From an uncultured Desulfurococcales archaeon (GTDB lineage Archaea > Thermoproteota > Thermoprotei_A > EX4484-217-1): DNA of 64,000 nt. Shown one piece after another: positions 1,710 through 48,778 of the stretch. How positions within the stretch are numbered: position 1 is the stretch's first letter; every line of letters starts with the position of its first letter. The notes under the pieces are model-generated. The model was not told where the DNA came from and ran no database searches. It saw nothing but the letters and a program-made list of their open reading frames with translations. The DNA is taken from NCBI GenBank assembly GCA_964406965.1, contig CAYOTT010000001.1, forward strand, positions 65,699-129,698. The letters run 5' to 3'. A program made the translations under genes and the position numbers.

Positions 1710-1874
1710 GATAGGGTGTTACATTTGCCCAGCCCTTAGAAGTTGGGAGATAATGATTATGCAAGCAAGTCCTCTAAGTGAAATTCTAAAGAACGAACTT
1801 TTCTACAAAGAGTTTATTACTCGCTTTCGGGAAATTGGGAATAATAGAGAATAGTTAGAGTAGGTGTTTAGTAG

Positions 1875-2651
1875 TTGCAGCTCATAGACTTTCTAATATA
1901 CTTTGGTATACCTTTACTAATAATCTTAATAATACTTTCAAAAAGCATTAAGATAGTTAAGGAGTATGAAAGAGCCGTTATATTCAGACTTGGTAGGCTC
2001 TTAGGTGCTAAAGGTCCCGGACTCTTCTTCATAATACCTTGGGTTGATAGTGTAAGAATAGTTGATCTAAGAGTTGTTTCAGTAGACGTTCCAGAGCAAA
2101 GAATAATAACAAAAGATAATGTAACCGTAGGAGTCGATGCTGTAGTTTACTATAAGGTTTTTGATCCCATAAAAGCTGTTGTTGCTGTAGAAAACTATTC
2201 ATATGCTGTTCTTCTCTTGGCACAGACAACTTTAAGAGATGTTTTAGGCCAAGTTGAACTAGACGATTTACTTACTAGAAGAGAAGAGTTGAACAAAAGG
2301 TTAACCAGCATATTAGATGTAGCAACAGATCCTTGGGGAATAAAGGTGACAGCGGTTACTATGAAGGAAGTTAAGCTACCGGAAACAATGCTTAGAGCTA
2401 TGGCGAAGCAAGCTGAAGCTGAGAGGTGGAGAAGAGCAAGAGTAATAGAGGCTGAAGGTGAGAGGCAAGCAGCAAAGATTATGGCTGAAGCTGCAGGTTT
2501 TTACGAGAAACATCCTGCAGCACTTAGGTTAAGAGAACTGCAGACAATGGTTGAAATAGCTAGAGAGAAGAACTTAGTAGTTATATCGGAAGCTGGTAGG
2601 GGAATAGGGGAAGTAGTAGGGTTAATTAAAGGCGTTAAGGAGGGGAAGTAG
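1875..2651 (+). CDS. SPFH/band-7 (stomatin/prohibitin-like) membrane protein.
   Basis: N-terminal TM segment; stomatin-like core (RAVIFRLGRL..., ITKDNVTV, DAVVYYKV); Ala/Glu-rich coiled-coil tail. Directly followed by an NfeD-like gene. Confidence 0.85.
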   Translation: MQLIDFLIYFGIPLLIILIILSKSIKIVKEYERAVIFRLGRLLGAKGPGLFFIIPWVDSVRIVDLRVVSVDVPEQRIITKDNVTVGVDAVVYYKVFDPIKAVVAVENYSYAVLLLAQTTLRDVLGQVELDDLLTRREELNKRLTSILDVATDPWGIKVTAVTMKEVKLPETMLRAMAKQAEAERWRRARVIEAEGERQAAKIMAEAAGFYEKHPAALRLRELQTMVEIAREKNLVVISEAGRGIGEVVGLIKGVKEGK

Positions 2652-2658
2652 TACAGCA

Positions 2659-3978
2659 ATGAAAAAAGTCTTCGTTAAAAAAATAATAATTTTTCTCTTA
2701 GTAGTAACACTTACTTTATCATATGTTACTAAAGCTGAAACAACTGTAGGTCCTAAAGTTTACATGTTCAAATTTGACGGTAAAATAATAAACCAAGGTC
2801 TTGCTGCAGCCCTTATTAATGCATTAAATAAAGCAGAAGCAGAAAACGCAATACTACTCCTCATAATAGATACTCCAGGAGGAGAACTTGACGCTACAGA
2901 ACAAATAGTAAAAGCCATTTTAAACTCTAAAGTTCCAGTTGTAGGCTACGTTTATCCTAGAGGCGCTACCGCATGGAGTGCTGGAACAATAATCTTACTT
3001 TCATGCCACATTGCAGCTATGGCGCCCGGTACAGCCATAGGAGCAGCACAACCAGTAATGTATGGTCCTGAAGGATTTCAGCCTATAAATTATAGTAAAA
3101 TAATAAATCCTGTTGCAGAACTAGTGCAGACTGTTAGTAAGGAGAGAGAAAGAAATGAAACAGCAGCTTACGAATTTGTGACTAAGAATTTAACGTTAAA
3201 CTACGAAGAAGCGTTGAAGAACAATGTAATAGACCTCATTGCTGACAATATTTATGACTTACTTTACAAAATAAATGGTATGGTTGTAAAGACCCCTTAT
3301 GGTAACGTCGTAATAAGTACTAAGGGTTATTCTCTTGAAGAATACGGGTGGAGTATAGGTGAAATTCTTTCTAATACTTTAGCTGATCCATTGCTTGCAA
3401 ACATACTTTTAATGCTAGGCTTTTACATATTACTAATAAGCTTATTTACTGGGCATTACCCCTTAATAGCCATAGGGTTATTGTTGTTCATACTAGGGCT
3501 TTTTGGCATGGGCTTCACAATAAACACCATTTCATCAGTACTAATAATTGCTGGCGTAATATTATTGGTAATAGAGCTTGTAACACCAGGTTTTGGAATA
3601 TTGGGAACAACAGGCGTTGTAATGATAGCGTTAGGATTCATTCTCCTCCCAATATACCTACCTGAGTCATGGTACATTACTCCTGAATTTTACTTTAGAT
3701 TCCTTATAGCAGGGCTCATAATAGGCTTTCTTGCTTCAGGATTTTTCGCATTCATAATATACAAAGTTGTTAAAGCTAGAAGAGCGAAACCTATGATATG
3801 GTCTATCGTAGGGGTTAAAGGTAAAGCACTTGACGATATTTCGCCAGATAAGGAAGGATTCGTTTTAGTTGAAGGAGAATATTGGATGGCTGTATCGGAT
3901 GAAGAAATAAAAGCTGGTGACGAAATAGTTGTTGTTGAAAAAATAGGGCCTCGGCTTAAAGTTAAAAAAGCTAAGTAA
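2659..3978 (+). CDS. NfeD-like membrane-bound protease (stomatin operon partner): ClpP-class serine protease domain, TM region and C-terminal OB domain.
   Basis: 8 bp downstream of the SPFH gene. N-terminal signal/TM, a ClpP-like region (TPGGELDAT, GYVYPRGATAWSAGT), multiple TM helices in the middle, and a C-terminal beta-rich domain. Confidence 0.75.
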   Translation: MKKVFVKKIIIFLLVVTLTLSYVTKAETTVGPKVYMFKFDGKIINQGLAAALINALNKAEAENAILLLIIDTPGGELDATEQIVKAILNSKVPVVGYVYPRGATAWSAGTIILLSCHIAAMAPGTAIGAAQPVMYGPEGFQPINYSKIINPVAELVQTVSKERERNETAAYEFVTKNLTLNYEEALKNNVIDLIADNIYDLLYKINGMVVKTPYGNVVISTKGYSLEEYGWSIGEILSNTLADPLLANILLMLGFYILLISLFTGHYPLIAIGLLLFILGLFGMGFTINTISSVLIIAGVILLVIELVTPGFGILGTTGVVMIALGFILLPIYLPESWYITPEFYFRFLIAGLIIGFLASGFFAFIIYKVVKARRAKPMIWSIVGVKGKALDDISPDKEGFVLVEGEYWMAVSDEEIKAGDEIVVVEKIGPRLKVKKAK

Positions 3979-33370: not shown

Positions 33371-34495
33371 ATGAAACCAAAAATAGTCTTTATTGACTAT
33401 TCAAAATACCCATTTCTCACATCTCCGCAAAAATATTTTGAGGAAAAATATGGTTACTCCCTAAGTTTATCAGAAATTTTTGAAATACACTTAACATCGC
33501 TTGTAGAGAAACGAGTAATTGAAAGAATAATTGGTGCAGTAAGGGGAAAAATATCAGAGCCAAAAGGACTTACTGATGATGAGGAAATAGTGTCTTTTTA
33601 TCTTTCACTCATAGTTTTAGGGGGAATAAACGATAAATGGCTTACATCACGTTATAGTGTCTTTGAAGCTAAAAGAATAAAGAAACATTTAGATAAAGAA
33701 AAGCCGGAGATTTTAGAAGCCATAGGTAAAATTTTAGGTTTAAACATACAATACTTAGGATCTAACAAAGCCTATAAAGTACTTCATGATATTAGAAAGG
33801 GGAGAGCAATTTACACTTACCTCCCATTTAAAGTAACAGTATATGATTACTTAAAATCCTTAAGATTACATACTGATCTCTCATGGAAGCTTTCAAACCA
33901 AATAGTAAGTGAAGGCTACATATACCTCACTCATCAACGGGTAAGTAGATTTTTGGAAGAAATAATATCACAAAAAATAGCTGAAATGGTTAAGCCCATT
34001 GAAATCGATGTGTTACCTGAGAAAATTAAAAAACTTGTAAAAGCAGTCTCCAAAGAGTACTACATCGTTAGAAAGGAACATGTAAAGGAAGCACTAAAAT
34101 TTAGTTTACGAGAGAAATTTGAAGAACTAAAATCTCTGGAGATAATTGAGCCGGAAGCATTTCCTCCATGTATTAAAACATTATATGATGAAGCAATAGA
34201 GGGAAAACATCTATCACACCATGCAAGATTTGCGTTAGCATCGTTTCTTCTTAACATAGGTTTAAATGTTGACTCGGTAGTTAACGTCTTTAGAAAACTG
34301 CCTGACTTTAACGAAACAATTGCAAGATACCAAGTTGAACACCTAGCTGGCCTTAGAGGGTCAAGAAAGAGATATAAACCTTATAACTGCGACACTATGA
34401 GAACATTAGGCCTTTGTGTTTCTGAATGCAGAGTGAAAAATCCCTTAGTATACTATTATAGAGAAGTTTTAAGAAGAATGTCAAAGAGAAGTTAA
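33371..34495 (+). CDS. priL: DNA primase large subunit PriL.
   Basis: C-terminal Fe-S domain pattern PPCIKTLYDEA...HHARFALASFLLNIG plus additional Cys. Confidence 0.65.
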   Translation: MKPKIVFIDYSKYPFLTSPQKYFEEKYGYSLSLSEIFEIHLTSLVEKRVIERIIGAVRGKISEPKGLTDDEEIVSFYLSLIVLGGINDKWLTSRYSVFEAKRIKKHLDKEKPEILEAIGKILGLNIQYLGSNKAYKVLHDIRKGRAIYTYLPFKVTVYDYLKSLRLHTDLSWKLSNQIVSEGYIYLTHQRVSRFLEEIISQKIAEMVKPIEIDVLPEKIKKLVKAVSKEYYIVRKEHVKEALKFSLREKFEELKSLEIIEPEAFPPCIKTLYDEAIEGKHLSHHARFALASFLLNIGLNVDSVVNVFRKLPDFNETIARYQVEHLAGLRGSRKRYKPYNCDTMRTLGLCVSECRVKNPLVYYYREVLRRMSKRS

Positions 34496-35152: not shown

Positions 35153-36994
35153 TTACTTTTTTATTTGTTTCTCTTGTGTCTCCATGGGTTCGGGCCTTAT
35201 TTTAACCCATAATGGCCGTGGGTCTCCGATTACTCGAATAAGGACCTCTCCTGTTCTTAACCATGTCATTCTCTCTTTTTCTGCCTCATTTAGTTTCATA
35301 AACTTACTTACGCTTTCAATATAATCTTTGCTATTTGACCCGAAAACGGCGATTGTTCCAGCATTATCTAGGATTTCCTTTGGAAAATCAGTTATATCTT
35401 GGGAAGCTAAAGCTACTGCGAGTCCGTAGCCTCGTCCCTCCTTTACCAGGGACTTAATAATTTTTGTCCCAGAACGTGTATCCATAAAGCGCCATGCTTC
35501 ATCAAGTATTACTAAGCAACGTATAGTATTTGTTGGCGTTAGCGTTAAAATATAGTTAGCTAAGATCTGAAGTAATGCTAGAGTGTATAATTTACGGTAC
35601 TCCTCAGGCAGCCTATGTAAAAGAAATATTAGAGGCTTCTTAAAGTTAAGAGTATATACGTTACCGTTGAAGAATATCTTTGATCTTAAAGACTCAAGCT
35701 TTGTTAGTAAACTAAACTCAACATCCTTATCACCATAATTCTTAGAGACTTCGGCAACTGTTGATATTAAGTATTTGAAGCTGGGATTATTTGTTGATTC
35801 ATACGTTTTTATAAGTGACATGTATAGTAGATATTCCTCCTTGGAAGTTAATGATGATGCGCTTTTAATAAGCTCAATTATTTGCTTCGCTCTTATTCTA
35901 GGGCTTGTAAACCATGTGTATAATATGTTAACATTGTTTCTTTCAGGATCTATTATTTCAAAAGCACCTGTAGACTTTAAACCGATAAATTCCCCCCTCA
36001 AGTCGAAAATCCATACTGGAATTTCATATTCCTCAATAGCCCTTTTCGCTATTGTGTAAAGGAATGTTGTCTTACCCCTACCTGTAGGCCCTACTATCAC
36101 TATATGTTTAGTTAAGTACTTTTCGAAATCATAAAAGACCGGTGTACCATAGTCTATGTCTTCACCCAAATAAATACCCTTACCGGAAATCTTAGGTCTT
36201 TTAACATATCCTATGGGCATCATGAAGCCTATGTCAGACTCCAACATAATCTTATGTTTAGTTTCTTTAAGAACGCCTAAACTTATTGCTTCTAAAACTT
36301 CATCTTCAGTTGCTTTTCTAACTTCAAAACCCATTGAGGCTTTAAATGACGTTATCACTGTACGTGCTCTTTCCTGAATAGCCTTCATTAACCCCTTTTC
36401 CGACGAAGCATGTGCTTTAACTATTATGTAGTACTTTATACTAATGGGTTTTTCACCCTTAACTATCCTATCATATATTTTTTCTAATCTTCTAAGTTTC
36501 TTTAAAATCTGAGGATTTGCGGGATCTGTTGTAACCATTATCTTATAATTTATAAGTTGTCTTTCTAAGTTCTTCACATATGATGTTGCATTTGCTTTTT
36601 TCTTCAGTAAAACTATTGAAACATCATTTTCGGTTGCTGTAATAAATCCTGTAAAGGATTTAATTTGTTGTATAAGGAAATCCGAAGCCACATCTTTGTA
36701 ACTATAAGGAACATCATCAACCACATATACTGCTAAGCCACTTATGATTTTATCCTTTTTCACAACTAAGATGTTACCTTTAACCACAATATTTGCTTCA
36801 CTAAACTCTAGTTTACGAGGCATTATTTTTGATGAAAGCTTTGGAAAAATCAGTGGTATGTTATAAGCGAAGATGAACAATAAGAACAAGATTATGTAAT
36901 GTTCTAATGCAACAAAATCCCTCAAGAAAACATAAGCTAAAACAAACGCTCCAATAACAATTATGAGCACTGGTATTTTTTCATTATACTCCAT
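35153..36994 (-). CDS. Membrane-anchored VirB4/TrbE-like AAA ATPase (CedB-like).
   Basis: Two N-terminal TM helices; Walker A GPTGRGKTT; Walker B ILDEAWRF (the DEAW of VirB4); GRGYGLAVALASQ. Confidence 0.6.
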   Translation of the reverse strand: MEYNEKIPVLIIVIGAFVLAYVFLRDFVALEHYIILFLLFIFAYNIPLIFPKLSSKIMPRKLEFSEANIVVKGNILVVKKDKIISGLAVYVVDDVPYSYKDVASDFLIQQIKSFTGFITATENDVSIVLLKKKANATSYVKNLERQLINYKIMVTTDPANPQILKKLRRLEKIYDRIVKGEKPISIKYYIIVKAHASSEKGLMKAIQERARTVITSFKASMGFEVRKATEDEVLEAISLGVLKETKHKIMLESDIGFMMPIGYVKRPKISGKGIYLGEDIDYGTPVFYDFEKYLTKHIVIVGPTGRGKTTFLYTIAKRAIEEYEIPVWIFDLRGEFIGLKSTGAFEIIDPERNNVNILYTWFTSPRIRAKQIIELIKSASSLTSKEEYLLYMSLIKTYESTNNPSFKYLISTVAEVSKNYGDKDVEFSLLTKLESLRSKIFFNGNVYTLNFKKPLIFLLHRLPEEYRKLYTLALLQILANYILTLTPTNTIRCLVILDEAWRFMDTRSGTKIIKSLVKEGRGYGLAVALASQDITDFPKEILDNAGTIAVFGSNSKDYIESVSKFMKLNEAEKERMTWLRTGEVLIRVIGDPRPLWVKIRPEPMETQEKQIKK

Positions 36995-37003
36995 AGCTTA
37001 CAC

Positions 37004-37186
37004 CTATTTTAAAATGCCCCTGTAATATATGATGAGTGTAATCGTAGGGATTATGATAAGCATTACTAGTAAAATAGTTAGCATGATATTCAAGTTGGCA
37101 CTATTCTTTACGATAATGTAAGTTACGTAAAGTACGTTAATTAAGTATAGTATTAGCATTGTTTTAAAATTAAAAGGATTCACCAT
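37004..37186 (-). CDS. Small two-TM membrane protein (CedA1/A2-like).
   Basis: 60 aa, two hydrophobic helices, tightly packed between the neighbouring genes. Confidence 0.4.
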   Translation of the reverse strand: MVNPFNFKTMLILYLINVLYVTYIIVKNSANLNIMLTILLVMLIIIPTITLIIYYRGILK

Positions 37187-37194
37187 TAACCACC

Positions 37195-38643
37195 TTACAC
37201 TCTATCTCTTATCGGTAAACGTAATTTTCTACCTCCAAGAGTATATGCGAAAGAGTAAGTTATCGAAACAAGAATCGTTAAATAAGTTACAGGTAATATT
37301 ATCCATTGAAAGAACACTTTACCTATGGCTTCACCTAAATTTTGAACATTAATATTAGAGTTTAAAGAGTTATCTATACCGCTAAAATACCCTTTATCTA
37401 CGAGTTGAATACTTTCTTTACCAACTACAACATAGGATACCTCTATAACCGTAGATCCTTTAGGTAAGTGGAAGCTTATGGTTGAAACATTTACATTGTT
37501 CCAAGTATAGCTTCTACTGGTAAATTTAATTTCATCATTGTTCACCTTCAACTTTGTTAATTTCGCAGCTTTAGGGATGTAGGCGATTACTGCTTCTTGT
37601 GGTTCATTCAAAACTATATTAAGAACGTACGTGTTTCCTTGTTCATAGACTTCAGCATTATTTACTTCATTCTGTAATATTAAAAGAACTGTATGGCCAA
37701 AATAAATAACATTATTTAGTGTAAAGTCATGTATGTAGTCTGCGTCGGGATCCAAATAGGGATTGTAGAGAAATTCGTTCATAGATATGTTCATAGAGCT
37801 TATGCTAATACCTAAGTAGCTGAGCTTAACGTAAAATCCGTTTACTTTTGCAGGTAATCCTCCAAAGGGTCTTCCAGCATTATAAAAGCCATTTTCGTCA
37901 GTATAGTATATAGCTATAGGATCTATGCTACTTTCTTTAAGAAACCATTCCGTTTTAATATACGGTATAGGCTTCCCCATAATATCTTTAACTAATCCCT
38001 TAGCAAAAAATACTCCAAGATCCTCCCTAGGCTTAAGTGAACTACTTATACTCGTATTTGAAAGGGGATTATCTCCGCCTACACTCATAACATTTACAAA
38101 TGTTGGAAGAAGCGGGAGAGCTATTGTGAAAACTATAGACATAGCTATTAATGATGCCCCTGCGCTTCTAGCTAATCTAAATGGTACTGCATAAAGTAGT
38201 ATTCCGAAGGCAAGTATTTTTGCAAAATACCCTTTAAACACTAATCCTAAAACAAAGAAAAACTCCATAACTATAAGCGTATATGTAGCTATACTAGTTA
38301 TTGGTCCTAAGAAAGATGCAACTAAAGCTCTTCCTCCAGCTTGAGATATAGCTAAAGAAATACTTATTAGCAGTGAAATAAATGAACCTAAAATAGCTAT
38401 TCTTTCAATAAGCCAGTTAAAGTAAAGGTTCCAACTAACTCCCAAAATACCTCCAAAATAGGATGTAGCTTCAATTATCGATGTAAACAATAAAACTAAA
38501 ATCGTTACTGCAAACGAATCGTAAATTAAAGTCGGCGCCCATTTCTTAATGCTCCAAACAGGTATAGGTAACAAGTATATAAGTACACCTAGGTAGTAAG
38601 TTAGTATAGCTAATGAATAGGCGATTATTAGAAACTCGTCCAT
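37195..38643 (-). CDS. Polytopic membrane protein with a large extracytoplasmic domain (CedA-like candidate).
   Basis: About 6 N-terminal TM helices, a soluble domain of about 240 aa rich in Asn/Tyr, and a C-terminal TM. Confidence 0.45.
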   Translation of the reverse strand: MDEFLIIAYSLAILTYYLGVLIYLLPIPVWSIKKWAPTLIYDSFAVTILVLLFTSIIEATSYFGGILGVSWNLYFNWLIERIAILGSFISLLISISLAISQAGGRALVASFLGPITSIATYTLIVMEFFFVLGLVFKGYFAKILAFGILLYAVPFRLARSAGASLIAMSIVFTIALPLLPTFVNVMSVGGDNPLSNTSISSSLKPREDLGVFFAKGLVKDIMGKPIPYIKTEWFLKESSIDPIAIYYTDENGFYNAGRPFGGLPAKVNGFYVKLSYLGISISSMNISMNEFLYNPYLDPDADYIHDFTLNNVIYFGHTVLLILQNEVNNAEVYEQGNTYVLNIVLNEPQEAVIAYIPKAAKLTKLKVNNDEIKFTSRSYTWNNVNVSTISFHLPKGSTVIEVSYVVVGKESIQLVDKGYFSGIDNSLNSNINVQNLGEAIGKVFFQWIILPVTYLTILVSITYSFAYTLGGRKLRLPIRDRV

Positions 38644-38677
38644 TACTTAACCCTTATAGTACCACTCATTATATTGA

Positions 38678-38992
38678 CTAAGTTGATGAGGCTATGTACT
38701 TTATTAAAGCAAAAATGCTTGTTCCTACAGCTAGCCAGAATGCACCTAAAATAGCATCTTCAACTATGTCCTGTCCAAACCTTTTTACTCTATATATTGG
38801 AATAGGTGAGCCCTTTAGAAGCCACCCAATGGCCCATGAAAGCATGAAGAGAGCCCATGCTGCAATAACTACTCTGTTAGTTAAATCATTGATTAGCGCT
38901 TCTATATCCACAACTATCCCCCCTAAGAATATATTGCTTTTTAAAAGGCTTTTTTGGGCTTTTAAAAAGCAATTATTTAAGATGATTCTCAA
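38678..38992 (-). CDS. Small membrane protein.
   Basis: 104 aa, two or three hydrophobic helices. Confidence 0.4.
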   Translation of the reverse strand: MRIILNNCFLKAQKSLLKSNIFLGGIVVDIEALINDLTNRVVIAAWALFMLSWAIGWLLKGSPIPIYRVKRFGQDIVEDAILGAFWLAVGTSIFALIKYIASST

Positions 38993-39029: not shown

Positions 39030-39278
39030 GTGATAATTCTTTTGAGTGTATTATGTCTTAACGATACAGTTGTTGTGACTTTTAAAGTAAGACGTGAACT
39101 TCTCGATAGACTTGATGAATTAGTAAAGAATGGATACTTTTCCAGTAGAAGTGAAGCAATAAGAACAGCAATAATAATGTTAATAAATAGTTATAGTAAA
39201 GGAGAAGGAAATGGGGAAAAACTTAGTAAAAGAAATTTAAAGGAGATTTTTGGTCCTAGACTTACTGTTTTAGGCTAA
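39030..39278 (+). CDS. Ribbon-helix-helix (CopG-like) protein; the true start is probably internal (GTG near 39075).
   Basis: VVVTFKVRRELLDRLDELVKNGYFSSRSEAIRTAIIMLI, paralogous to the product of 14519..14680. Confidence 0.5.
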   Translation: MIILLSVLCLNDTVVVTFKVRRELLDRLDELVKNGYFSSRSEAIRTAIIMLINSYSKGEGNGEKLSKRNLKEIFGPRLTVLG

Positions 39279-40470: not shown

Positions 40471-42504
40471 ATGCTGAAAAAGCATTGGCCAAAAATAGCT
40501 AAAGTATTTTGGTGTCCGAACTGCAATATTCCACTCATCAGTAGTAAATGCTACAAATGTGGAGGTGAAGGTATAGAAGTTAAACTTAGAGAACCAGCAG
40601 ATGCAAGAATAGCCTTCCCAAGAGATATAGAAACAGTAAAGGAAGCGTTTAAAGAAAAATTTGGTACAGAGAAAGGTTTTGAAAAGATAGCTAATTCCTC
40701 AAAAATAATTTTACTAAATAAAACAACCCACATAGATGATGCTAAAGAAATGGTAATTAATGGCAATAACGTTGGAATTCTACTGTTTAATCCCTTCACT
40801 TCAAAGTGGGGGTTTAGACCATCATATTATGGCTCTCTCAAAATATTGGAAGAAAACGAAGTGGAAACAGTAGCTGTTAGAGGCAATATTAAAGAGAACG
40901 AAGTATTGCCCTTCAGAAAACAAAGCATAAATGAGAACCAGTATGTTATCATAACAAATCTTAATGGAGAACCATTAGGTTTAGGTGCTGTACTCCGAAA
41001 CGGAAAAATTCGGGTAATTAAGAAGTATAGACAGAAGTTTATTTATGAAACATCAGAAAAATCAGCAACAATAAATGAGGTAATTAAGGGAAACATTGAT
41101 AAATTAGAGAGACAAGTTGAAGAAGCAAAAACCTTTCTTAAAAAAATGAATTCAAAAGCAAGGACGCCTGTTGTTGTCTCGTTCTCAGGGGGTAAAGATA
41201 GTTTAGTATCACTTCACTTAGCACTAAATAGCGTTAGCGAAATAACGTTGCTTTTCAATAATACAGGTATAGAGCTTCCAGAAACTTTAGAGACGGTTTT
41301 AAAAGTTTCTGAAGAATACGGATTAAAGCTTGAAATAGCTGATGCGAAAAACGCTTTTTGGGAATCTGTGAATGTTTTTGGACCGCCAGCAAGAGACTAT
41401 AGATGGTGCTGTAAAGTTGCAAAACTTGTTCCTTTAGCTAAGAAAATGCTTAAAAAATGGCCCTCTGGCGCGTTAAACATTGTTGGTCAAAGAGCATACG
41501 AGTCCCTCGAAAGAGCTAAGAGTACTAGAATTTGGCGTAACAAATGGGTTCCCATGGTAATAAGTGTCTCACCTATACAGTATTGGAGCCAGCTTTCAAT
41601 ATGGCTTTACATATTTAAAGAGAAACTTACCAAACATGTTAACCCATTATACTTTAAAGGTTTTGAAAGAATAGGATGCTTCATGTGCCCCGCCAGTAGA
41701 TTAGCTGAATTTGAAGAGGTTAAGAAAGCCCATCCTAACTTATGGAACAAATGGGAGAATTTCCTTTATAAATGGGCTCAAAGAATAAATGCACCTAAGG
41801 AATGGGTAACGCTGGGCTTATGGAGATGGCTTGGACCTGCAGCACCTAAGAAAGTTCTCTCAAGAAAAACCCAGTTTAATGCTTACGATTGGATTAGCAC
41901 TTATGAAAAATGGGTAGATACAAAGATATATTCATTTGAAAAAGAAGAAAAAGAAGACTCCATCATCGCTAAGGTAAAGTTAAGCAAGAAAATAGACTTA
42001 GATAGAGTCTTAAGAATCCTCACTATTTTGGGAAAAATAGCTAAAAAACATGCTGATGAGGTAATAGTATATAGCGGTGAAACTAAAACCCACTACATTC
42101 TTAGAAGAAGTGGTGAAATACTTGTTAAAACACAAGCTGGCAAGAGATGGGTTGAGGAGTTTTTAGATGCAGTAAAGCTTGCCTATAGAGCACATTACTG
42201 TGTAGAATGTGGTTCTTGCGAAGCCCTTTGTCCCTCTGGAGCGATCAAAGTAATTAATGCGAAACCAATAGTCCAAGAGCTGCTATGCCTTAAATGTAAG
42301 GCATGTAATGATGTGTGCCCTATAGCTGATGTTATGGTGGAGAAGTTGGTTTCAGCTATAATCTTTAATAGATACGATGCATGGAGAAGAAAGACTAAAA
42401 GAAGTAGAGAATACACTGCAAAATTACTTGCAGAATTAATGTTCAAAACAAAGTTTTTCTCTAAACACTTAGCTCTTCCAGAATCTCCTTGTTCTAATAA
42501 ATAA
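40471..42504 (+). CDS. Multidomain protein: N-terminal Zn ribbon, PAPS-reductase-like PP-loop domain, and C-terminal 2x[4Fe-4S] ferredoxin domain.
   Basis: CPNC...CYKC; VVVSFSGGKDS, NNTGIELPET, RDYRWCCK, GQRAYESLER; CVECGSCEALCP and CLKCKACNDVCP. 6 bp downstream of the acyltransferase. Confidence 0.65.
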   Translation: MLKKHWPKIAKVFWCPNCNIPLISSKCYKCGGEGIEVKLREPADARIAFPRDIETVKEAFKEKFGTEKGFEKIANSSKIILLNKTTHIDDAKEMVINGNNVGILLFNPFTSKWGFRPSYYGSLKILEENEVETVAVRGNIKENEVLPFRKQSINENQYVIITNLNGEPLGLGAVLRNGKIRVIKKYRQKFIYETSEKSATINEVIKGNIDKLERQVEEAKTFLKKMNSKARTPVVVSFSGGKDSLVSLHLALNSVSEITLLFNNTGIELPETLETVLKVSEEYGLKLEIADAKNAFWESVNVFGPPARDYRWCCKVAKLVPLAKKMLKKWPSGALNIVGQRAYESLERAKSTRIWRNKWVPMVISVSPIQYWSQLSIWLYIFKEKLTKHVNPLYFKGFERIGCFMCPASRLAEFEEVKKAHPNLWNKWENFLYKWAQRINAPKEWVTLGLWRWLGPAAPKKVLSRKTQFNAYDWISTYEKWVDTKIYSFEKEEKEDSIIAKVKLSKKIDLDRVLRILTILGKIAKKHADEVIVYSGETKTHYILRRSGEILVKTQAGKRWVEEFLDAVKLAYRAHYCVECGSCEALCPSGAIKVINAKPIVQELLCLKCKACNDVCPIADVMVEKLVSAIIFNRYDAWRRKTKRSREYTAKLLAELMFKTKFFSKHLALPESPCSNK

Positions 42505-45303
42505 TGTTTCAGCTTCTATGAGCGCTTTATAGAATTCGCTTTCATTTTCGAAAAACTTTCCAACTATTCTTGCCGCAGTTTTGTATCCCACACCAAATGT
42601 TGATAGAGCAATTATGGCTGGCTTACCAAACCTCAACACAAGATCAGCCTTTAACTTTTCCTCTCTTAACATAGCTTTCTCAGCAAGACTAAGTTTAAGA
42701 TTTCTTAGCATCTTACGCACAATAACTTCTATATCCCTTGATCCTATAGATGTTGTTGTTAAAAAACCTGACCCGCAAATATTACACTTAGGATAGTTCG
42801 GAAGATCGGCGATCCTAACATTGTCCATAACATTACCGCACATCAAACATATAAGCCTAACCCGCTTTTCTACAGCCCTACGCTTAAATAACTCTATTAT
42901 TTCCATTAAGGGAGTGAGTTTTACTGAAACATCATAGTAAGAATAAGCTGTTAATGCTTGCATAGTTAACGGTGAATAGTTCTCTAAGTAAACAAATTTC
43001 ACTTTAACCTTGCCTTTTCTAATTGAGTCAATGAATTTGAAAATAGCATTTAAATCTATTTTATCAACAGCTATTTCATTAAATGCCTCATAACCTATAG
43101 GTGTATCAACATAGTATGCTAAAATGTTTGAAACTTTTTTTACACTAACATCTTTCCTTATAGCTCCAAACCTTTTTGCCACATTATACAAGCGCCATTT
43201 AAATACATTACTTCTCTTAATATTTTCTCTTAGTAAGTACTTTAAATCCTCAACATTAACACTAACTAGGTCGTTAATTACTTCCTCAAAATGCACTATT
43301 GAGTTGCTCATCAGAATTACCCTATATGGGTCGCTTTTGCTTACAACATTTACTCCTCGCTTTCTTAGAAAGTATGTAAGTAGCATCATTAAGCCAAAAT
43401 TTCCTTTACTACCTAGGTGCGAATTTACAATAATATTTTTGCCTCCAATAATTTCAACTATAACCTCTTTATCCGTAGGAATCCACCCCGTTTTAGAATA
43501 ATGTTCCTTAATTTGCTTTCCAATGGAATTTAGAAGAGATTGTGAAGTTGGATATTTTTTAAGGATTGCAAGTCCCTTCTCTATTATTCTACGCTTTAAA
43601 GCACCTACTTCCCTGGAAACTTTATAATCAACAGGTATAAGTTCACCCTCCCATTTAGGAAGGGCGCCCCAAGAATCTTCAGCAGGCTTAACATAAACGT
43701 ACTTTTCATCATAATCTAACGTCTCCCAAACCTTTCCTGAAAGTAAAAATTTAGCTCCTACATTAAGTGATGAAACCACAAAGTCTTCGTCAAGCTGTCC
43801 TATTATAGTATTATCTATAATATTTTTAACTAGAAAATGTCTCGCATCAGGTATCATCGAAACATCATAATAGTAAATCTTAGTTCTCTTAGTTTTTCTC
43901 AGCATTTTTCCATCGAAAGAAATAACACCTATTGTTGAAGCAAAACTTAACGTTTCAATAAGGGTAGCATAGCTTAACTTTCTATAGTAAAAAGACCTCC
44001 TCAATAACTTAAAGACTTCGTCTACGGAGACTTCTCCGTATTCAAGAAGTAACCCGGCAGTTTCATAAACTATAATGTCAAGTGGATTTTCATAAATGCT
44101 TTCACTTTCTAAATTCTTATCAATAACTCTTCTTGCCAGTACAAGAGATTCTAATGCATCATCTACGTTAGCTAAGGCTATAACATACCCTTTTGACTTC
44201 TCAGTTTCTCTATGGCCAGATCTACCTACTCTTTGTAAAAGCTTTATTGCCTGTCTTGGAGAACCGTATTGAATAACTAGATCTACTTCACCTACATCTA
44301 TACCTAATTCTAAAGATGATGTTGCTACCACGTACCTTATAATGCCCCGTTTAAATTCTGATTCAAGAGTTAATCTAACATTTCTTGACAAGCTACCATG
44401 GTGCACTCCTACACTAATATTAAATATTCTCTTTAATCTTGAGGATAAGAGCTCAGCTAAATCTCTCGTGTTAGTGAAAACTATACCTGATTTAGATTTT
44501 TCAAGGATCTCAACTATCCTTCTCAATCTAGCCATGGTGCTAGGCGAGATACCTTCACGTAAAGCAATTATTTCATCTTCACTTGTAGGCTGAGGAACTT
44601 CAACAATAATCTCATATGGCTTCTGATAATATACTTCAACAACTTCAACATATCTAGGTCCCCCTAAAAACCTTTTAGCTGCTTCAACATTTCCTATAAC
44701 CGCCGAAAGCCCTATTCTTTGAAATTCCCTTCCGCAGAGCCTAACAAGTCTTTCCAAAGCTACTGAAAGTATTACACCCCTCTTACTACTCATTAGCTCG
44801 TTTACTTCGTCAACAATAACCCACTTAATATTTTTAAGAACCTTTCTCATAATAGCGTGAACTAGAAGGTAATGAAGGGTTTCAGGAGTTGTTATTAGCA
44901 TATGTGGTGGATTTTCTGCTATCTTTCTTCTAAAATAGTAAGTTGTATCGCCATGTCTTACAGCTATATTTAAACCTATATCTTTAGCTATTTTCCCCAT
45001 TCTTACTAAAATATCTCTATTTAAAGCTCTAAGAGGTGTTATGTAAAGTGCTTGAATTCCACTTGTAAAATTCTTTTCAACAATTTTCGAGTATATGGGG
45101 AATAATGCTGCCTCGGTTTTTCCCGCCCCTGTTGGGGCTACGATTAACGTATTATAACCTTTAAGTATGAGTGGTATAGCTTTACTCTGAACTTTTGTAG
45201 GCTCTAAATACCCATATTTTTGAATAACACTTTTGAGTTTAGGGTTCAGCATGTTAAATACGTTCTTCTCATTTAAAGCGTACTTGTTTTTACTGCCAAG
45301 CAT
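42469..45303 (-). CDS. lhr: Lhr-like large ATP-dependent helicase (DEAD/DEAH box, superfamily 2).
   Basis: Motif I APTGAGKT, DEVNE, helicase C motifs (QRVGRSGHR); about 940 aa. Confidence 0.85.
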   Translation of the reverse strand: MLGSKNKYALNEKNVFNMLNPKLKSVIQKYGYLEPTKVQSKAIPLILKGYNTLIVAPTGAGKTEAALFPIYSKIVEKNFTSGIQALYITPLRALNRDILVRMGKIAKDIGLNIAVRHGDTTYYFRRKIAENPPHMLITTPETLHYLLVHAIMRKVLKNIKWVIVDEVNELMSSKRGVILSVALERLVRLCGREFQRIGLSAVIGNVEAAKRFLGGPRYVEVVEVYYQKPYEIIVEVPQPTSEDEIIALREGISPSTMARLRRIVEILEKSKSGIVFTNTRDLAELLSSRLKRIFNISVGVHHGSLSRNVRLTLESEFKRGIIRYVVATSSLELGIDVGEVDLVIQYGSPRQAIKLLQRVGRSGHRETEKSKGYVIALANVDDALESLVLARRVIDKNLESESIYENPLDIIVYETAGLLLEYGEVSVDEVFKLLRRSFYYRKLSYATLIETLSFASTIGVISFDGKMLRKTKRTKIYYYDVSMIPDARHFLVKNIIDNTIIGQLDEDFVVSSLNVGAKFLLSGKVWETLDYDEKYVYVKPAEDSWGALPKWEGELIPVDYKVSREVGALKRRIIEKGLAILKKYPTSQSLLNSIGKQIKEHYSKTGWIPTDKEVIVEIIGGKNIIVNSHLGSKGNFGLMMLLTYFLRKRGVNVVSKSDPYRVILMSNSIVHFEEVINDLVSVNVEDLKYLLRENIKRSNVFKWRLYNVAKRFGAIRKDVSVKKVSNILAYYVDTPIGYEAFNEIAVDKIDLNAIFKFIDSIRKGKVKVKFVYLENYSPLTMQALTAYSYYDVSVKLTPLMEIIELFKRRAVEKRVRLICLMCGNVMDNVRIADLPNYPKCNICGSGFLTTTSIGSRDIEVIVRKMLRNLKLSLAEKAMLREEKLKADLVLRFGKPAIIALSTFGVGYKTAARIVGKFFENESEFYKALIEAETLFIRTRRFWKS

Positions 45304-45389
45304 TATTTCACTTAACCTAAGTGTAAGTATTCCGGTTAAGCTTAAAAATTAAATATAACTTTTAAATTTAATCTAGGACATGGTAGAGT

Positions 45390-47204
45390 ATGCGTATTAA
45401 TAAAGTTATCTTAGTAGTAAACTTTGTTTTCATTGTAGCATTATTCTTATTGCTAGCTTTAATAAGTAATGTTGGTTCTTTAATTATAGTACCAATTCTT
45501 TATACGGTGCTAATAATATTCCAACTAATTACAGCTACACTTTTAGAATCTCCAATGCTGGCTTTTATAAACACCTTAGCGTTAACGTTTGGAATGAACA
45601 TTTTAAAGAGGTATGTACTCCTCATAGCGTTTTTAATGAGAAACGCATTACTCTATTATTTAGTTTTCTCAATAGACTCCTTCATAAGAAACCCTATAAC
45701 CTATCTAACTATATTTGCAACTTACATAACATTATATTATTCATGGACCTTCATAGTTAAGAAGGGAGATTCCCTCATAGAAAGTATCAAGAGAAGAAGT
45801 TTTAACATTGAAATAAAGCCTAAGAACGTACTTATAATAATGCTTCTTTCACTACTATTAATAATTTTAAGACCACTAACTTTACTTGACGAAATAATAT
45901 ATTTAACAGGAGTCTTAATTTCCTCATTATTCATACGTGAGCTAAGTCAAATAGCTATTTTATCACCTCTTCTCTCATGGATACTAATACCTTATACAAT
46001 ACATATCCCGCCAAGGGAGGTCTCGAGAGGAAAGAAGTTAGAAATCGTAAGGGAGGGTATTGTCTTAGGAAAACTTATAGCATCATTAACTTATGGTAAA
46101 CCTGTTAATGAATGGTTAAAGGACAGAGTATCAGCAACAAAATCGCCTTCATGGTATTGGCGAATAGAAGATGAAAAGTACGTTTTTAACCCATATGTGC
46201 AGGTTAATTACCATGTATTAATTGCGGGAACTAGCGGCACAGGCAAGTCTAGCTTAGCTAAAAAGCTAGTGAAAGAACTTTACCTTACATGGGGCATTCC
46301 TTCATTAATACTTGATCCTCATAATGAGTACGTGAATTTAATCAAACAACTAAATGGCGTAATTGTGGATGCTTCTAAAATATCAATTAATCCTCTAGAG
46401 CTTGATGGAGCATCACCGAGAGAGAGAACGGTTCAAGTAGCTGATACATTACAAAGAGTTTTTAAGCTAGGAAACCTTCAAAGAACTGTTCTTGAAGACT
46501 TAATTGAAGAAGCTTACGCGGAAAAGGGAATACTAATAGACGATGAAGAATCTTGGAATAATACTCCTCCGACCTTCCAAACATTACTTAGGGTTGTCGA
46601 GAAAAGAATAGAATATGCGAGAACTTCAGCTGAAAGAGCTAGATATGAAAGTTTAAAACCATATTTAAGAACTCTCTCCATCACCATATTTAGAAATACT
46701 ACAATAGAGTTTCAAAAACTCCTTGAAAAACCAAGTGTAATAGCTATGGCTAATTTGCCAGGAGAATACGTTAAATCTATTCTTGCTGAAACTGTTCTTA
46801 GAAAAATAGCTCATAAAATGTACGCTGCTGGTGAGAAGCAAAGACTTCTAAACTATATAGTAATAGATGAGGCGCATAGATTATGCAGGAGAGGAGTTGA
46901 ACCATCGCTTGTAGCAAAGCTAATGATGGAAAGTAGAAAATATGGTATAGGCTTCATAATTATAACTCAGCAACCATTAGACATTGACGAATCCATAGTT
47001 GCAAATGCAGCTACCAAAATATCTTTCAAACTCGCAGAACCGGAGAATTTAGATTATATAGCTAAAACGTTTGCAGGATTCGTTACTGATAATAGATATG
47101 ATATGGTGAGAAAGGCATTATACTATTTACCAATGTTTCATGCCATAATTAAAGATAGTGTAGTGAACGATCCTATCATAGTTAGAATAGATATTTCAAG
47201 TTAA
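45390..47204 (+). CDS. Membrane-anchored HerA/FtsK-superfamily (DUF87-like) ATPase.
   Basis: About 6 N-terminal TM helices; Walker A AGTSGTGKSS; Walker B VIDEAHRL; RKYGIGFIIITQQP. Confidence 0.65.
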   Translation: MRINKVILVVNFVFIVALFLLLALISNVGSLIIVPILYTVLIIFQLITATLLESPMLAFINTLALTFGMNILKRYVLLIAFLMRNALLYYLVFSIDSFIRNPITYLTIFATYITLYYSWTFIVKKGDSLIESIKRRSFNIEIKPKNVLIIMLLSLLLIILRPLTLLDEIIYLTGVLISSLFIRELSQIAILSPLLSWILIPYTIHIPPREVSRGKKLEIVREGIVLGKLIASLTYGKPVNEWLKDRVSATKSPSWYWRIEDEKYVFNPYVQVNYHVLIAGTSGTGKSSLAKKLVKELYLTWGIPSLILDPHNEYVNLIKQLNGVIVDASKISINPLELDGASPRERTVQVADTLQRVFKLGNLQRTVLEDLIEEAYAEKGILIDDEESWNNTPPTFQTLLRVVEKRIEYARTSAERARYESLKPYLRTLSITIFRNTTIEFQKLLEKPSVIAMANLPGEYVKSILAETVLRKIAHKMYAAGEKQRLLNYIVIDEAHRLCRRGVEPSLVAKLMMESRKYGIGFIIITQQPLDIDESIVANAATKISFKLAEPENLDYIAKTFAGFVTDNRYDMVRKALYYLPMFHAIIKDSVVNDPIIVRIDISS

Positions 47205-47278: not shown

Positions 47279-47509
47279 TTGTCTGAAGAGGGTGTTGTCG
47301 AAGAAAAAACCGAGGAAGCTCCAGTAAAAGAGGAGGAAATTGTCGAAGAAGAGGAATACAGCGAAGAACTTTCTGTGCAAGATTTAGAATTCTTTGTGGA
47401 AATAACGGAGCTTTGGGAGAAAATGCTTAGAGGAGAAGCAACGCTTCAAGATATAGCTAAGCTTGAGCGAAAGAAAATTAGAGTAAGGGCTAGAAAGAAG
47501 AGGAAATAG
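47279..47509 (+). CDS. Small highly acidic protein with a basic C-terminus.
   Basis: Glu-rich N-terminus and a KKRK tail; GTG/TTG start; weak. Confidence 0.3.
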   Translation: MSEEGVVEEKTEEAPVKEEEIVEEEEYSEELSVQDLEFFVEITELWEKMLRGEATLQDIAKLERKKIRVRARKKRK

Positions 47510-47520
47510 TAGCTTATTAG

Positions 47521-47913
47521 CTATAGTTCACTTTTAACAATGTTTACACTATAACCTAACTCCTCCAATACTTTCATAACATTTTCAAGGGAAATCGAAC
47601 GGTCAAAAATTAAACCTACTTTCTTTCTACCGTTTTCACCGATAAGAAGCTTCACTTTATCGAAGAGAATTGTTCCTTTAAGCATATCACTTGAGTCATG
47701 AGGTATTAAAATATAGTTTTTAAACTTTTTGCGAGCTATGTCATAAAATACATCAAAATTACGTATGATCCTAAGTACTTCTTTAATATCTTTATTCTTA
47801 CTTGGAAATCTTTTGGAAAGCATTCGTAAAAATTCTTCAGAATCCTCTAAGGGAATCTCAATGTATTTATAGTTTCCCAACATAACTTTTACCGTAATTT
47901 CCTTAGACATCAC
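47521..47913 (-). CDS. Hypothetical protein.
   Basis: ORF only. Confidence 0.35.
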   Translation of the reverse strand: MMSKEITVKVMLGNYKYIEIPLEDSEEFLRMLSKRFPSKNKDIKEVLRIIRNFDVFYDIARKKFKNYILIPHDSSDMLKGTILFDKVKLLIGENGRKKVGLIFDRSISLENVMKVLEELGYSVNIVKSEL

Positions 47914-48016: not shown

Positions 48017-48778
48017 ATGAGTTTTAGAGCACTCTATCCCTCAGCATCGAAATTTAAGTATATAGCCCAGACATTAGCTAAAATCGCCGATGAAATCCCG
48101 TTTACAGTAAATGAAAATGGCCTATTTGTTAAAACATTGAGTCCCGATAAAACAACTATGATATCATTAAATATTCCATCATTAGCTTTCGACGAATTCG
48201 AGTGCCCGGAGGAAACAACGTTTATCGTAAGTAGCGATGAATTCAATAGAACAGCTAGAAGAGGTTCAAGAAACGACATGGTTGAGCTCGTTCTTGAAAG
48301 GGAAAATAGGAGATTAAGGATGGCGTTTATTGATAAGAAACTTGGTTATAAAAGAACATTTTATGTTCAGCTTAAAGAGGGCATAATAGAGAAATTACCT
48401 GAACCTAAGCTGAAGCTTCCTGCAATAGTTAGAATGGTTAGTGATGATTTCAAAAACATAATTAAAGATGCAAAGATAGTAGGTGATGAAATAGAATTCG
48501 TAGCGACTTCTGATAAACTAGAAGCAAGGACAATAACTCCTCAAAAAGAATACTACAACATTATGAAGCCTGACAGACCGTTAATATCCTTAATGGTTGA
48601 AGAATCTGAAGTCAGATCCACTTATGGAATAGACTTATTGGAAATAACATTAAAGGCTATCGCAGCTTCTGAAACAGTAACTTTAGAATTCGGCTCATCA
48701 ATGCCTATGAAAGTGACCTTTGACGTTCCAGGTGGAGGGACTTTAGTTTACTGGGTGGCACCCAGAGCCCAAGCATGA
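48017..48778 (+). CDS. pcn: DNA polymerase sliding clamp (PCNA) subunit.
   Basis: About 250 aa; C-terminal GGGTLVYWVAP pattern and overall PCNA-like beta-rich composition. Confidence 0.7.
   Translation: MSFRALYPSASKFKYIAQTLAKIADEIPFTVNENGLFVKTLSPDKTTMISLNIPSLAFDEFECPEETTFIVSSDEFNRTARRGSRNDMVELVLERENRRLRMAFIDKKLGYKRTFYVQLKEGIIEKLPEPKLKLPAIVRMVSDDFKNIIKDAKIVGDEIEFVATSDKLEARTITPQKEYYNIMKPDRPLISLMVEESEVRSTYGIDLLEITLKAIAASETVTLEFGSSMPMKVTFDVPGGGTLVYWVAPRAQA

Follow-up and report, generated by a model that had tools for sequence, protein, structure and literature searches.

Within a 64,000-nucleotide stretch of DNA from an uncultured Desulfurococcales archaeon (assembly GCA_964406965.1, contig CAYOTT010000001.1, positions 65,699 to 129,698 of the forward strand; hereafter the window, to whose positions all coordinates refer), we examined a gene located at 45390..47204 (+ strand) and encoding a membrane-anchored ATPase of the HerA/VirB4 class with a length of 604 amino acids (aa). 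The name X is used here for this gene, its protein, and its family. X represents a distinct family of membrane-embedded ATPases of the HerA/VirB4 class, which is chromosomal and inherited vertically, and whose gene is always divergent from that of an aLhr1-type helicase and is frequently found beside the ced cluster; judged from sequence comparison, it is a third paralogue beside CedB and CedD. A previous sequence-only reading of the window had proposed a membrane unit for DNA translocation or processing that could not be assigned to any described system. This proposal, in which the function is putative, still stands after the exclusion of both CedB and CedD. To it we add that the gene following X encodes Rpo13, that the ATPase encoded upstream is CedB, and that the lhr-X pair recurrently adjoins the ced cluster.

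The reading frame of X is uninterrupted from ATG to stop (604 codons), in a window with a GC content of 35%. From the N- to the C-terminus, the protein is characterized by a polytopic membrane domain with 6-8 hydrophobic helices (residues 1-215; 45390..46034), a linker with a long beta-hairpin (46035..46202; strands 224-236 and 254-266 in the secondary structure predicted by AlphaFold2, AF2), and a HerA/VirB4-type P-loop ATPase domain (residues 272-604; 46203..47201), all encoded on the + strand. The ATPase domain was assigned to the Pfam families DUF87 and AAA_10, with a score of 59.7 bits versus a cutoff of 23.2 for the DUF87/HerA central domain; no family could be recognised for the membrane domain. 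The linker bears the family motif YGKP..N.WLK...KSP.WYWR, with conserved W257 and G223/G227. All of the ATPase motifs quoted in the sequence-only reading were recovered, at residues 280-287, 490-496, and 515-529. They correspond to the Walker A motif GTSGTGKS (residues 280-287; 46227..46250), the Walker B motif IVIDE (residues 490-494; 46857..46871) followed by AH (to residue 496), and the segment SRKYGIGFIIITQQP (residues 515-529), which contains the pair R516-K517 (46935..46940) with Q527 downstream. Based on general knowledge of FtsK-HerA ATPases, we take R516-K517 to be a candidate arginine finger. Walker A, hhhDE, the conserved Arg and Gln, and a RecA-like fold are all present, which places X in the HerA/VirB4 branch of the FtsK-HerA superfamily, with an intact catalytic core.

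About six N-terminal transmembrane (TM) helices had been counted in the sequence-only reading, in agreement with our analysis. The N-terminal ~205 residues were strongly hydrophobic, with 5-6 non-overlapping 19-mer peaks in a Kyte-Doolittle scan. The AF2 model, which was built on 13 homologues (mean pLDDT 82), exhibited eight long helices (residues 2-28, 30-52, 55-83, 86-100, 102-123, 144-160, 165-181, and 186-204) and one amphipathic helix at residues 123-145, in a lysine/arginine-rich loop; the N-terminal domain modelled alone agreed with the full-length model. An arrangement of six spans and two interfacial or re-entrant helices would suit the positive-inside rule, and we give the predicted number of TM helices as a range of 6-8. 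Residues 272-604 were modelled as a compact alpha/beta ATPase domain, with which the chain ends, and a globular N-terminal domain of the VirB4 type was not seen in the model. In both sequence and structure, the ATPase domain was nearest to the C-terminal domains of DndH/DptH (7es4) and VirB4 (4ag5, 4ag6) and to HerA (4d2i). Sequence matches in the PDB were the DptH/DndH C-terminal domain (7es4) and HerA (4d2i), and Foldseek matches were 7es4 (TM-score 0.75), VirB4 4ag6 (TM-score 0.73), and HerA 4d2i, with E-values from 7.6e-18 to 1e-12.

To define the family, a profile of X was searched against 1.84 billion cluster representatives (50% identity), which yielded 451 representatives at E ≤ 1e-30. 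The membrane-domain-plus-ATPase architecture, defined as at least 4 hydrophobic peaks, a Walker A motif at residue ~200-335, and a total length below 700 aa, was found in 67 of the 150 best representatives. The definition of the Lhr-linked X family adds a HerA-like ATPase and a divergent pairing with aLhr1, followed by rpo13/pcna, and the window protein displays all of these features. Its closest named relative came from a Desulfurococcales archaeon metagenome-assembled genome (MAG; 67% identity), and full-length homologues reached down to 22% identity. According to the names of the cluster members, the family spans Sulfolobales, Desulfurococcales, Acidilobales, and Fervidicoccaceae. Members were found in Saccharolobus (S. 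islandicus, S. shibatae), Acidianus (A. ambivalens, A. infernus, A. hospitalis), Metallosphaera (M. javensis, M. yellowstonensis), and other Sulfolobales (Sulfolobales archaeon HS-7, Sulfurisphaera javensis, Sulfolobus tengchongensis), as well as in MAGs labelled Desulfurococcaceae, Desulfurococcales, Acidilobales, Fervidicoccaceae, or Thermoprotei. Only proteins already found were returned by a further homologue search with a 31-sequence X profile. Existing annotations of these proteins are 'ATP-binding protein', 'AAA ATPase', and 'DUF87 domain-containing protein' or, wrongly, 'HerA' or 'EcfA2', and no paper on the family or on its locus tags or accessions was found among the main texts of the literature searched.

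Among 31 diverse members (identity to the target down to 22%), the Walker A residues G280, G283, G285, and K286, as well as E494, R516, K517, and Q527, were invariant; A495, next to the Walker B glutamate, was also an invariant alignment column. In the membrane domain, G174, S196, W197, and P201 were invariant or nearly so. Conserved residues are thus present in both parts of the protein, and therefore the membrane and ATPase domains are both under selection; because of these residues and the full-length homologues, X is not a chance open reading frame (ORF). When the family alignment was scanned against genome contigs, 599 pattern-matching stretches were obtained, 0 of which were confirmed by tblastn. 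Plasmid collections contained only ATPase-domain-level relatives, the best matches being bacterial (24-29% identity), and viral contigs gave only partial ATPase matches. An origin of X from a plasmid TrbE was ruled out by the bacterial, ATPase-restricted nature of the plasmid matches, and a viral or mobile-element origin by the partial nature of the viral ones.

We then compared X with the known Ced ATPases. Against the NCBIfam CedB model (NF041017), X scored 47.4 bits (cutoff 700), in the ATPase region 262-534 only, which speaks against the alternative, raised with the sequence-only reading, that X is simply the CedB of this organism. Its top NCBIfam match was CedD (NF053655), with 67.1 bits (cutoff 600) over the ATPase domain only, and X was outscored on this model by the CedB of the window (82 bits). 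Among 28 X-family members scanned, the best CedD score was 103.8 bits, and none exceeded 104 on any Ced model. As a positive control, a CedD was recovered from metagenome contigs with a 25-mer cedD quantitative PCR (qPCR) primer (mLife supplement); a 22-mer of a cedD qPCR primer returned nothing from genome contigs. This authentic S. islandicus-type CedD (L015:4864-6489) scored 771.7 bits on the CedD model and was 23% identical to X, in the ATPase domain only. A homology search from it retrieved 118 proteins, none of them in the X family, consisting of Sulfolobales CedDs and shorter, often TM-less Desulfurococcales proteins (Staphylothermus, Desulfurococcaceae AG1), and the search from X gave a separate set of proteins. 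Moreover, X and CedD were found together in one organism in S. tengchongensis (proteins P0023 and P0260, respectively), Sulfurisphaera javensis (P0022 and P0292), Metallosphaera javensis (P0187 and P0272), and S. islandicus (P0030 and P0256).

A bootstrapped neighbour-joining tree of the ATPase domain, a phylogeny of the kind suggested along with the sequence-only reading, recovered a CedD clade (100%) and a CedB+CedD clade (92%), with no X member inside either; the X subclade of the target (100%) and the Sulfolobales X members (99%) both fell outside CedB+CedD. An alignment by hhalign placed X 219-613 on CedD 197-546 (probability 99.96%, 21% identity), with homology across the entire ATPase domain, and left the N-terminal regions of the two proteins unaligned, with the hairpin segment of X appearing as an insertion relative to CedD. 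The number of hydrophobic segments was 0-2 in CedD versus 5-8 in X. It is because of these scores, the separate clades, the coexistence with CedD, and the unlike N-termini that X is regarded as a third paralogue.

CedD (Saci_0667/SiRe_1715) has been described as a second membrane-bound FtsK-HerA ATPase that is essential for DNA import (PMC11823120, PMC11868833). Like X, it is a membrane-associated FtsK-HerA-superfamily ATPase of Thermoprotei, found in genomes with a Ced system. However, its N-terminus combines few hydrophobic segments with a globular VirB4-like domain, whereas that of X consists of 6-8 helices and a beta-hairpin; and the cedD gene is strongly damage-induced and located near tfb3, whereas the X gene lies beside lhr and outside the induced lists. 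CedB (Saci_0748), the VirB4-like DNA import ATPase, is also membrane-anchored and HerA/VirB4-like, and its counterpart is encoded in the same window. The sequence-only reading had distinguished this protein, by its DEAW motif, from X, and the two indeed share just 24% identity, over the ATPase domain only. Membrane-anchored HerA/VirB4-like ATPases are already known in these archaea (CedB, CedD), and X adds a third family; what is new in X is a membrane domain that differs from theirs and resembles no recognisable family, together with a genomic partner that is likewise different and is deeply conserved.

The genomic neighbourhood of X was compared in 13 distinct contexts, namely the window and the loci L001/L002, L003/L004, L005/L006, L007, L008, L009, L010, L011, L012, L013, L016, and L017, including three Sulfolobales genomes (L008, L009, L011). 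The block order aLhr1 <-> X -> rpo13 ... pcna was observed in 13 out of 13 contexts, with X identities to the target from 67% down to 22%. Synteny with lhr, whose loss in relatives had been named as evidence against the sequence-only reading, is therefore kept, in Sulfolobales as elsewhere. In every context, an lhr gene (888-953 aa, WH_Lhr and DEAD_assoc) was located directly upstream of X in divergent orientation, a small gene was located 3' of X, and a PCNA gene followed one or two genes beyond the latter. The small gene had an Rpo13 Pfam match in most cases (L001/L002, L003/L004, L005/L006, L007, L010, L011, L017, and the window); in L008, L009, L012, L013, and L016 its product measured 103-117 aa and matched no Pfam family. 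The genes outside the block differed, with cbf5/L14e-type genes upstream of lhr in Sulfolobales and PAPS-reductase-like genes elsewhere.

In the window, the helicase partner is a 944-aa aLhr1-type protein (42469..45303, - strand; Pfam DEAD, Helicase_C, WH_Lhr, DEAD_assoc) with a C-terminal CxxC...CxxC zinc finger (Cys819/822/840/843). The divergent arrangement and the 86-bp intergenic region (45304..45389) reported in the sequence-only reading were confirmed, and an A/T-rich TATA-like box, CTTTTAAATTTAAT, was seen ~15-30 nt 5' of the X start codon. The 'tiny acidic ORF' that it had placed after X is present, and can now be identified as rpo13, encoding a 76-aa RNA polymerase subunit (47279..47509, + strand; PF12136, 28.3 bits versus a cutoff of 25) that is acidic at its N-terminus and basic in its C-terminal tail. 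The PCNA sliding-clamp subunit is encoded at 48017..48778 (+ strand; NF002218, 281.6 bits versus a cutoff of 267). Spacer lengths between lhr and X, determined in 11 contexts, were 36-119 bp in all but L012 (214 bp). On reading these 11 spacers, without alignment or motif search, we saw no shared motif beyond A/T-rich TATA-like boxes; by eye, the window spacer contained no exact copy of an ANTTTC-type damage-response motif, which is uninformative at that length.

The small gene after X begins directly at the X stop codon, or overlaps with it, in Sulfolobales (junctions of 0 to -1 bp; L011 10001-12787 and its equivalents in L008 and L009). This small gene had an Rpo13 Pfam match in L011 and none in L008 or L009, and pcna1 was close behind, which suggests an X-rpo13(-pcna1) operon or co-transcription in this order. 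Outside Sulfolobales, rpo13 had its own A/T-rich box. Transposon insertion sequencing (Tn-seq) data are available for S. islandicus M.16.4 (PMC6249222), in which pcna1 (M164_1753) was classed as essential and rpo13 (M164_1754), the Lhr-like helicase gene (M164_1756), and M164_1755, annotated as 'arCOG00285, HerA helicase / ATPase AAA', as non-essential. We identified M164_1755 as the X orthologue because the M.16.4 gene order matches that of L011; its equivalent in strain REY15A is ADX85668.1. Since insertions in X were tolerated although pcna1 is essential, pcna1 must also be transcribed from a promoter of its own.

Upstream of lhr, the window contains the genes cedB, cedA, and cedA1, all on the - strand. 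The 613-aa protein with the Walker B motif LDEAW (35153..36994), which the sequence-only reading had considered as a possible plasmid TrbE, is CedB-like: its residues 10-599 match positions 5-586 of the 590-position NCBIfam CedB model, with 279 bits (cutoff 700). It is followed by a 60-aa hydrophobic ORF in a cedA2-like position between cedA and cedB (37004..37186), for which no family match was found, a CedA-like membrane protein of 482 aa (37195..38643; NCBIfam CedA 164 bits, cutoff 330), and the Ced pilin gene cedA1 (38678..38992; NCBIfam Ced_CedA1, 120.6 bits versus a cutoff of 100). Small ORFs were observed at the same cedA/cedB position in L001, L003, L012, and L016. The CedB and CedA scores do not reach the equivalog cutoffs, which presumably reflects the distance between the organism and the model sequences, and the 35153-38992 cluster is the Ced DNA-import cluster of the organism and not a plasmid TrbE locus.

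Among the 13 contexts, ced genes were found 0-4 genes upstream of lhr in seven (the window and six others). In L017, which carries the most divergent X examined, cedB-like and cedA genes precede lhr with 0 intervening genes; one gene intervenes in L012, L013, and L016, and four in the window, L001/L002, and L003/L004. In Sulfurisphaera javensis (L008), cedA is located ~9 kb upstream. Because the intervening genes vary in identity while the ced and lhr-X clusters stay neighbours, this pattern suggests either a slowly decaying ancestral super-cluster (cedB-cedA-cedA1 ... lhr <-> X) or selection for proximity. Beside cedA of L017, we also observed a 437-aa protein (1794-3107, - strand) whose only CedB-like part is a short P-loop stretch (37.6 bits) and which has no precomputed Pfam family; it may be a reduced or degenerate CedB.

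With regard to function, six copies of X would form a ring on the cytoplasmic side of the membrane, anchored through their own membrane domains, and would use ATP to thread DNA, like HerA, VirB4, and the DndH C-terminal domain. By analogy with these relatives, ring formation at the membrane and DNA translocation are probable. The functional partner of X would be aLhr1, a 3'-5' helicase implicated in recombination and repair, which could unwind or feed the DNA. The Sulfolobales proteins SSO0394, Saci_0814, and SiRe_1605 have been classed as aLhr1, whose mutants are sensitive to H2O2 or methyl methanesulfonate (MMS) and which has been tied to homologous recombination (PMC10003305, PMC8301817). 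The aLhr1-X pair might serve Ced-type intercellular DNA exchange, with X acting as a substrate-coupling motor, as a donor-side (export) motor, or by handing incoming DNA to the recombination machinery; this is the interpretation that we favour, tentatively, and we put it somewhat short of an even chance.

Sulfolobales and their relatives repair DNA by swapping chromosomal DNA between cells. The import side of this exchange is being mapped, with CedA, CedA1, CedA2, and CedB and, since 2025, CedD and CedE, and a donor-side export component or ATPase is named as a gap in both Ced papers (PMC11868833, PMC11823120), as are further ATPases of the process. X is a concrete and genetically tractable candidate for this gap, as it has an S. 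islandicus orthologue and donor-/recipient-resolved assays exist. In a more specific form of our proposal, X and aLhr1 would be the missing donor-side machinery, with aLhr1 unwinding the DNA and the X hexamer pumping a strand toward the Ced pilus or channel of the partner cell. The pair would then be a relaxase-free archaeal analogue of the conjugative coupling-protein and helicase pair, and would ancestrally have formed one super-cluster with cedA1, cedA, and cedB. All of these parts taken jointly, the export motor is a speculative idea and rather unlikely. The pairing of X with a helicase recalls that of TraD with TraI, and we know of no relaxase in archaea. Type IV coupling proteins (VirD4/TrwB/TraD) share with X an N-terminal membrane anchor and an FtsK/HerA-superfamily ATPase, which is hexameric in their case; however, they have an all-alpha domain and a plasmid location, whereas X has no all-alpha domain and is chromosomal. 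Matches of X to coupling-protein Pfam families were just below threshold and covered only short stretches or the generic P-loop (TrwB_AAD_bind, 20.2 bits versus a cutoff of 20.5; TraG-D_C, 19.2 versus 22; P-loop_TraG, 19.9 versus 25.8).

Several observations weigh against a role of X in Ced-type exchange. In the tree, the deeper backbone had a support of just 1-35%, and the ATPase domain of X was no nearer to CedB/CedD than to HerA, VirB4, or DndH. The proposed topology, with both the N-terminus and the ATPase domain in the cytoplasm, requires an even number of true spans. No ced gene was found within 10 kb in L005/L006, L007, L010, or the two Saccharolobus/Sulfolobus genomes (L009 and L011), and because of these five contexts the linkage may be an ancestral trait and not a product of selection; among the contexts with linkage to ced, several belong to related, broadly collinear MAG lineages and are not independent observations. 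In addition, the X and aLhr1 orthologues are absent from the published S. islandicus list of genes induced >30-fold by 4-nitroquinoline 1-oxide (NQO), which includes cedA, cedA1, cedA2, cedB, cedD, and cedE, and Saci_0814 (aLhr1) and its neighbouring gene are absent from the S. acidocaldarius TFB3/UV table. Because of these two absences, X is not obviously part of the damage regulon. If the Ced link fails, X would still represent a new architecture of membrane-anchored HerA-like motor, distributed across at least three orders of Thermoprotei.

The main rival explanation is a housekeeping pump comparable to FtsK/SpoIIIE, i.e., a membrane-anchored hexameric double-stranded DNA translocase that would clear or resolve the chromosome at the division site or in segregation with the assistance of aLhr1, the proximity to ced being historical. 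Its architecture would be analogous, since FtsK/SpoIIIE, of the same superfamily, also joins a polytopic membrane domain to a RecA-like ring motor that pumps DNA. The core information-processing setting of X (pcna, rpo13, lhr, priL), its probable operon with rpo13 in Sulfolobales, with junctions of 0 to -1 bp, and its absence from the published damage-induced lists point in the same direction, as does its presence in a Fervidicoccaceae MAG, from an order reported without CedB and CedD. The distribution of X presumably resembles that of Cdv-dividing Thermoprotei. However, X is non-essential in S. islandicus according to the Tn-seq data, although the FtsK motor domain is dispensable in Escherichia coli too. 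The gamma domain, which reads KOPS, and the long linker of FtsK/SpoIIIE have no counterpart in X, whose ATPase belongs to the HerA/VirB4 branch and gave no match to the Pfam family FtsK_SpoIIIE at E ≤ 0.01, and such a pump leaves the recurrent adjacency to ced, seen in seven contexts, unexplained. Overall, we consider this explanation unlikely, but worth keeping in view.

A membrane-tethered DNA repair motor, performing HerA-like end-processing or fork-remodelling with aLhr1 on damaged DNA of the cell's own chromosome and using the membrane domain as a mere anchor or sensor, with no DNA crossing the membrane, also appeared quite unlikely. It would be consistent with the HerA-type ATPase domain of X, the DUF87/HerA central domain and the alignment with 4d2i being shared with HerA, the NurA-partnered helicase of double-strand break repair. 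It would also fit the conserved partnership with aLhr1, given the H2O2/MMS sensitivity and recombination link of the latter, the adjacency of PCNA, and the non-essential nature of both X and aLhr1. Nevertheless, the HAS-barrel, the solubility, and the nurA/mre11/rad50 operon of HerA have no counterpart in X, and none of these three genes was found in the 13 contexts. The scores of X on HerA models were low (51.2 bits for HerA_Thermprot, cutoff 800; 43.3 bits for helicase_HerA, cutoff 970). The need of a repair function for a membrane domain that is conserved, comprises 6-8 helices, and contains invariant residues is also hard to explain, and X does not appear on the damage-induced lists.

It is improbable that X is a VirB4-like assembly ATPase acting on protein, for example by extracting or inserting the CedA1/CedA2 pilin or another surface component. 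The VirB4 C-terminal domain was among the best structural matches, weak matches of X to VirB4, TraC, and CD1110-type models were detected (50.7 bits versus a cutoff of 643 for VirB4 TIGR00929), and cedA1 and cedA are nearby. However, the VirB4 N-terminal domain is missing from X, CedB and CedD together have already been proposed for the VirB4 role, and such a role would not account for a DNA helicase being the partner of X in every context.

An anti-phage defence module, made of a HerA-like ATPase and an Lhr/BrxHI-like helicase, was suggested by PADLOC matches of X to DndH (102 bits), mad8 (90 bits), and defence-type HerA models and of Lhr to BrxHI (307 bits). The C-terminal ATPase domain of DndH/DptH (7es4) is the best match of the X ATPase domain in sequence and structure. 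DndH is, however, a soluble ~1700-aa component of phosphorothioate-dependent restriction, in which it works together with DndF and DndG, whereas X has no such partners or domains, nor any nuclease, Sir2, or DUF4297 partner. In every lineage, X is single-copy, vertically inherited, and fixed at a core-genome site between lhr and rpo13/pcna, and viral and plasmid contigs show similarity to the ATPase domain only, which makes a defence role very doubtful.

Least probable of all, and refuted as far as sequence evidence goes, is that X is the divergent CedB or CedD orthologue of this lineage: CedD is its top NCBIfam match and the proteins share a superfamily, membrane association, and proximity to ced, but even the window CedB exceeds X on the CedD model (82 bits, against 772 for a true CedD), Sulfolobales carry X and CedD together (S. 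islandicus being reported with CedB too), separate CedD-type proteins exist in Desulfurococcales (Staphylothermus, Desulfurococcaceae AG1), and the clades and N-terminal domains are not the same.

Other observations concern the genes around the block. Only residues ~3-196 of the window CedA match the CedA model (6-198 of 259), and CedA proteins of the other non-Sulfolobales loci are also long (432-505 aa), their C-termini being extended by ~250-300 residues that carry no annotation. Divergent from cedA1, an 82-aa ribbon-helix-helix protein is encoded at 39030-39278 (+ strand), with a sub-threshold match to aCcr1 (38.8 bits versus 60), a family of archaeal cell-cycle regulators. The same gene was found beside cedA1 in L001 and L003, and a ribbon-helix-helix gene is also present in L005.

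A 677-aa protein combining PAPS-reductase and 4Fe-4S ferredoxin domains (PRK13795 family) is encoded at 40471-42504 (+ strand), and its 3' end overlaps that of lhr by 36 bp; a PAPS-reductase-like gene adjoins lhr in most non-Sulfolobales loci. The presence of such a gene near a DndH-like ATPase could have indicated a DndC link, which was rejected on the basis of the DndC model score (29 bits versus 290) and further undone by the gene not being adjacent in L013, L017, and Sulfolobales.

Between rpo13 and pcna, the window contains a 130-aa ORF (47521-47913, - strand) that was assigned to no family of Pfam or NCBIfam. Its place and strand are shared by a 122-130-aa gene in every non-Sulfolobales context (L001, L003, L005, L007, L010, L012, L013, L016, and L017), and the Sulfolobales loci L008, L009, and L011 lack it. 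A gene for a PINA-type ATPase (PIN and PINA_C) was observed ~7-9 kb downstream of X in L005 (21030-21911) and L017 (17045-17875), two unrelated contexts, which may be a coincidence; PINA is essential in Sulfolobus and is associated with Holliday-junction processing. Finally, the DNA primase large subunit PriL is encoded just past cedB (33371-34495, + strand; Pfam DNA_primase_lrg, 124.8 bits), and genes for replication, repair, and DNA transfer are therefore densely packed throughout the 33-49 kb stretch.

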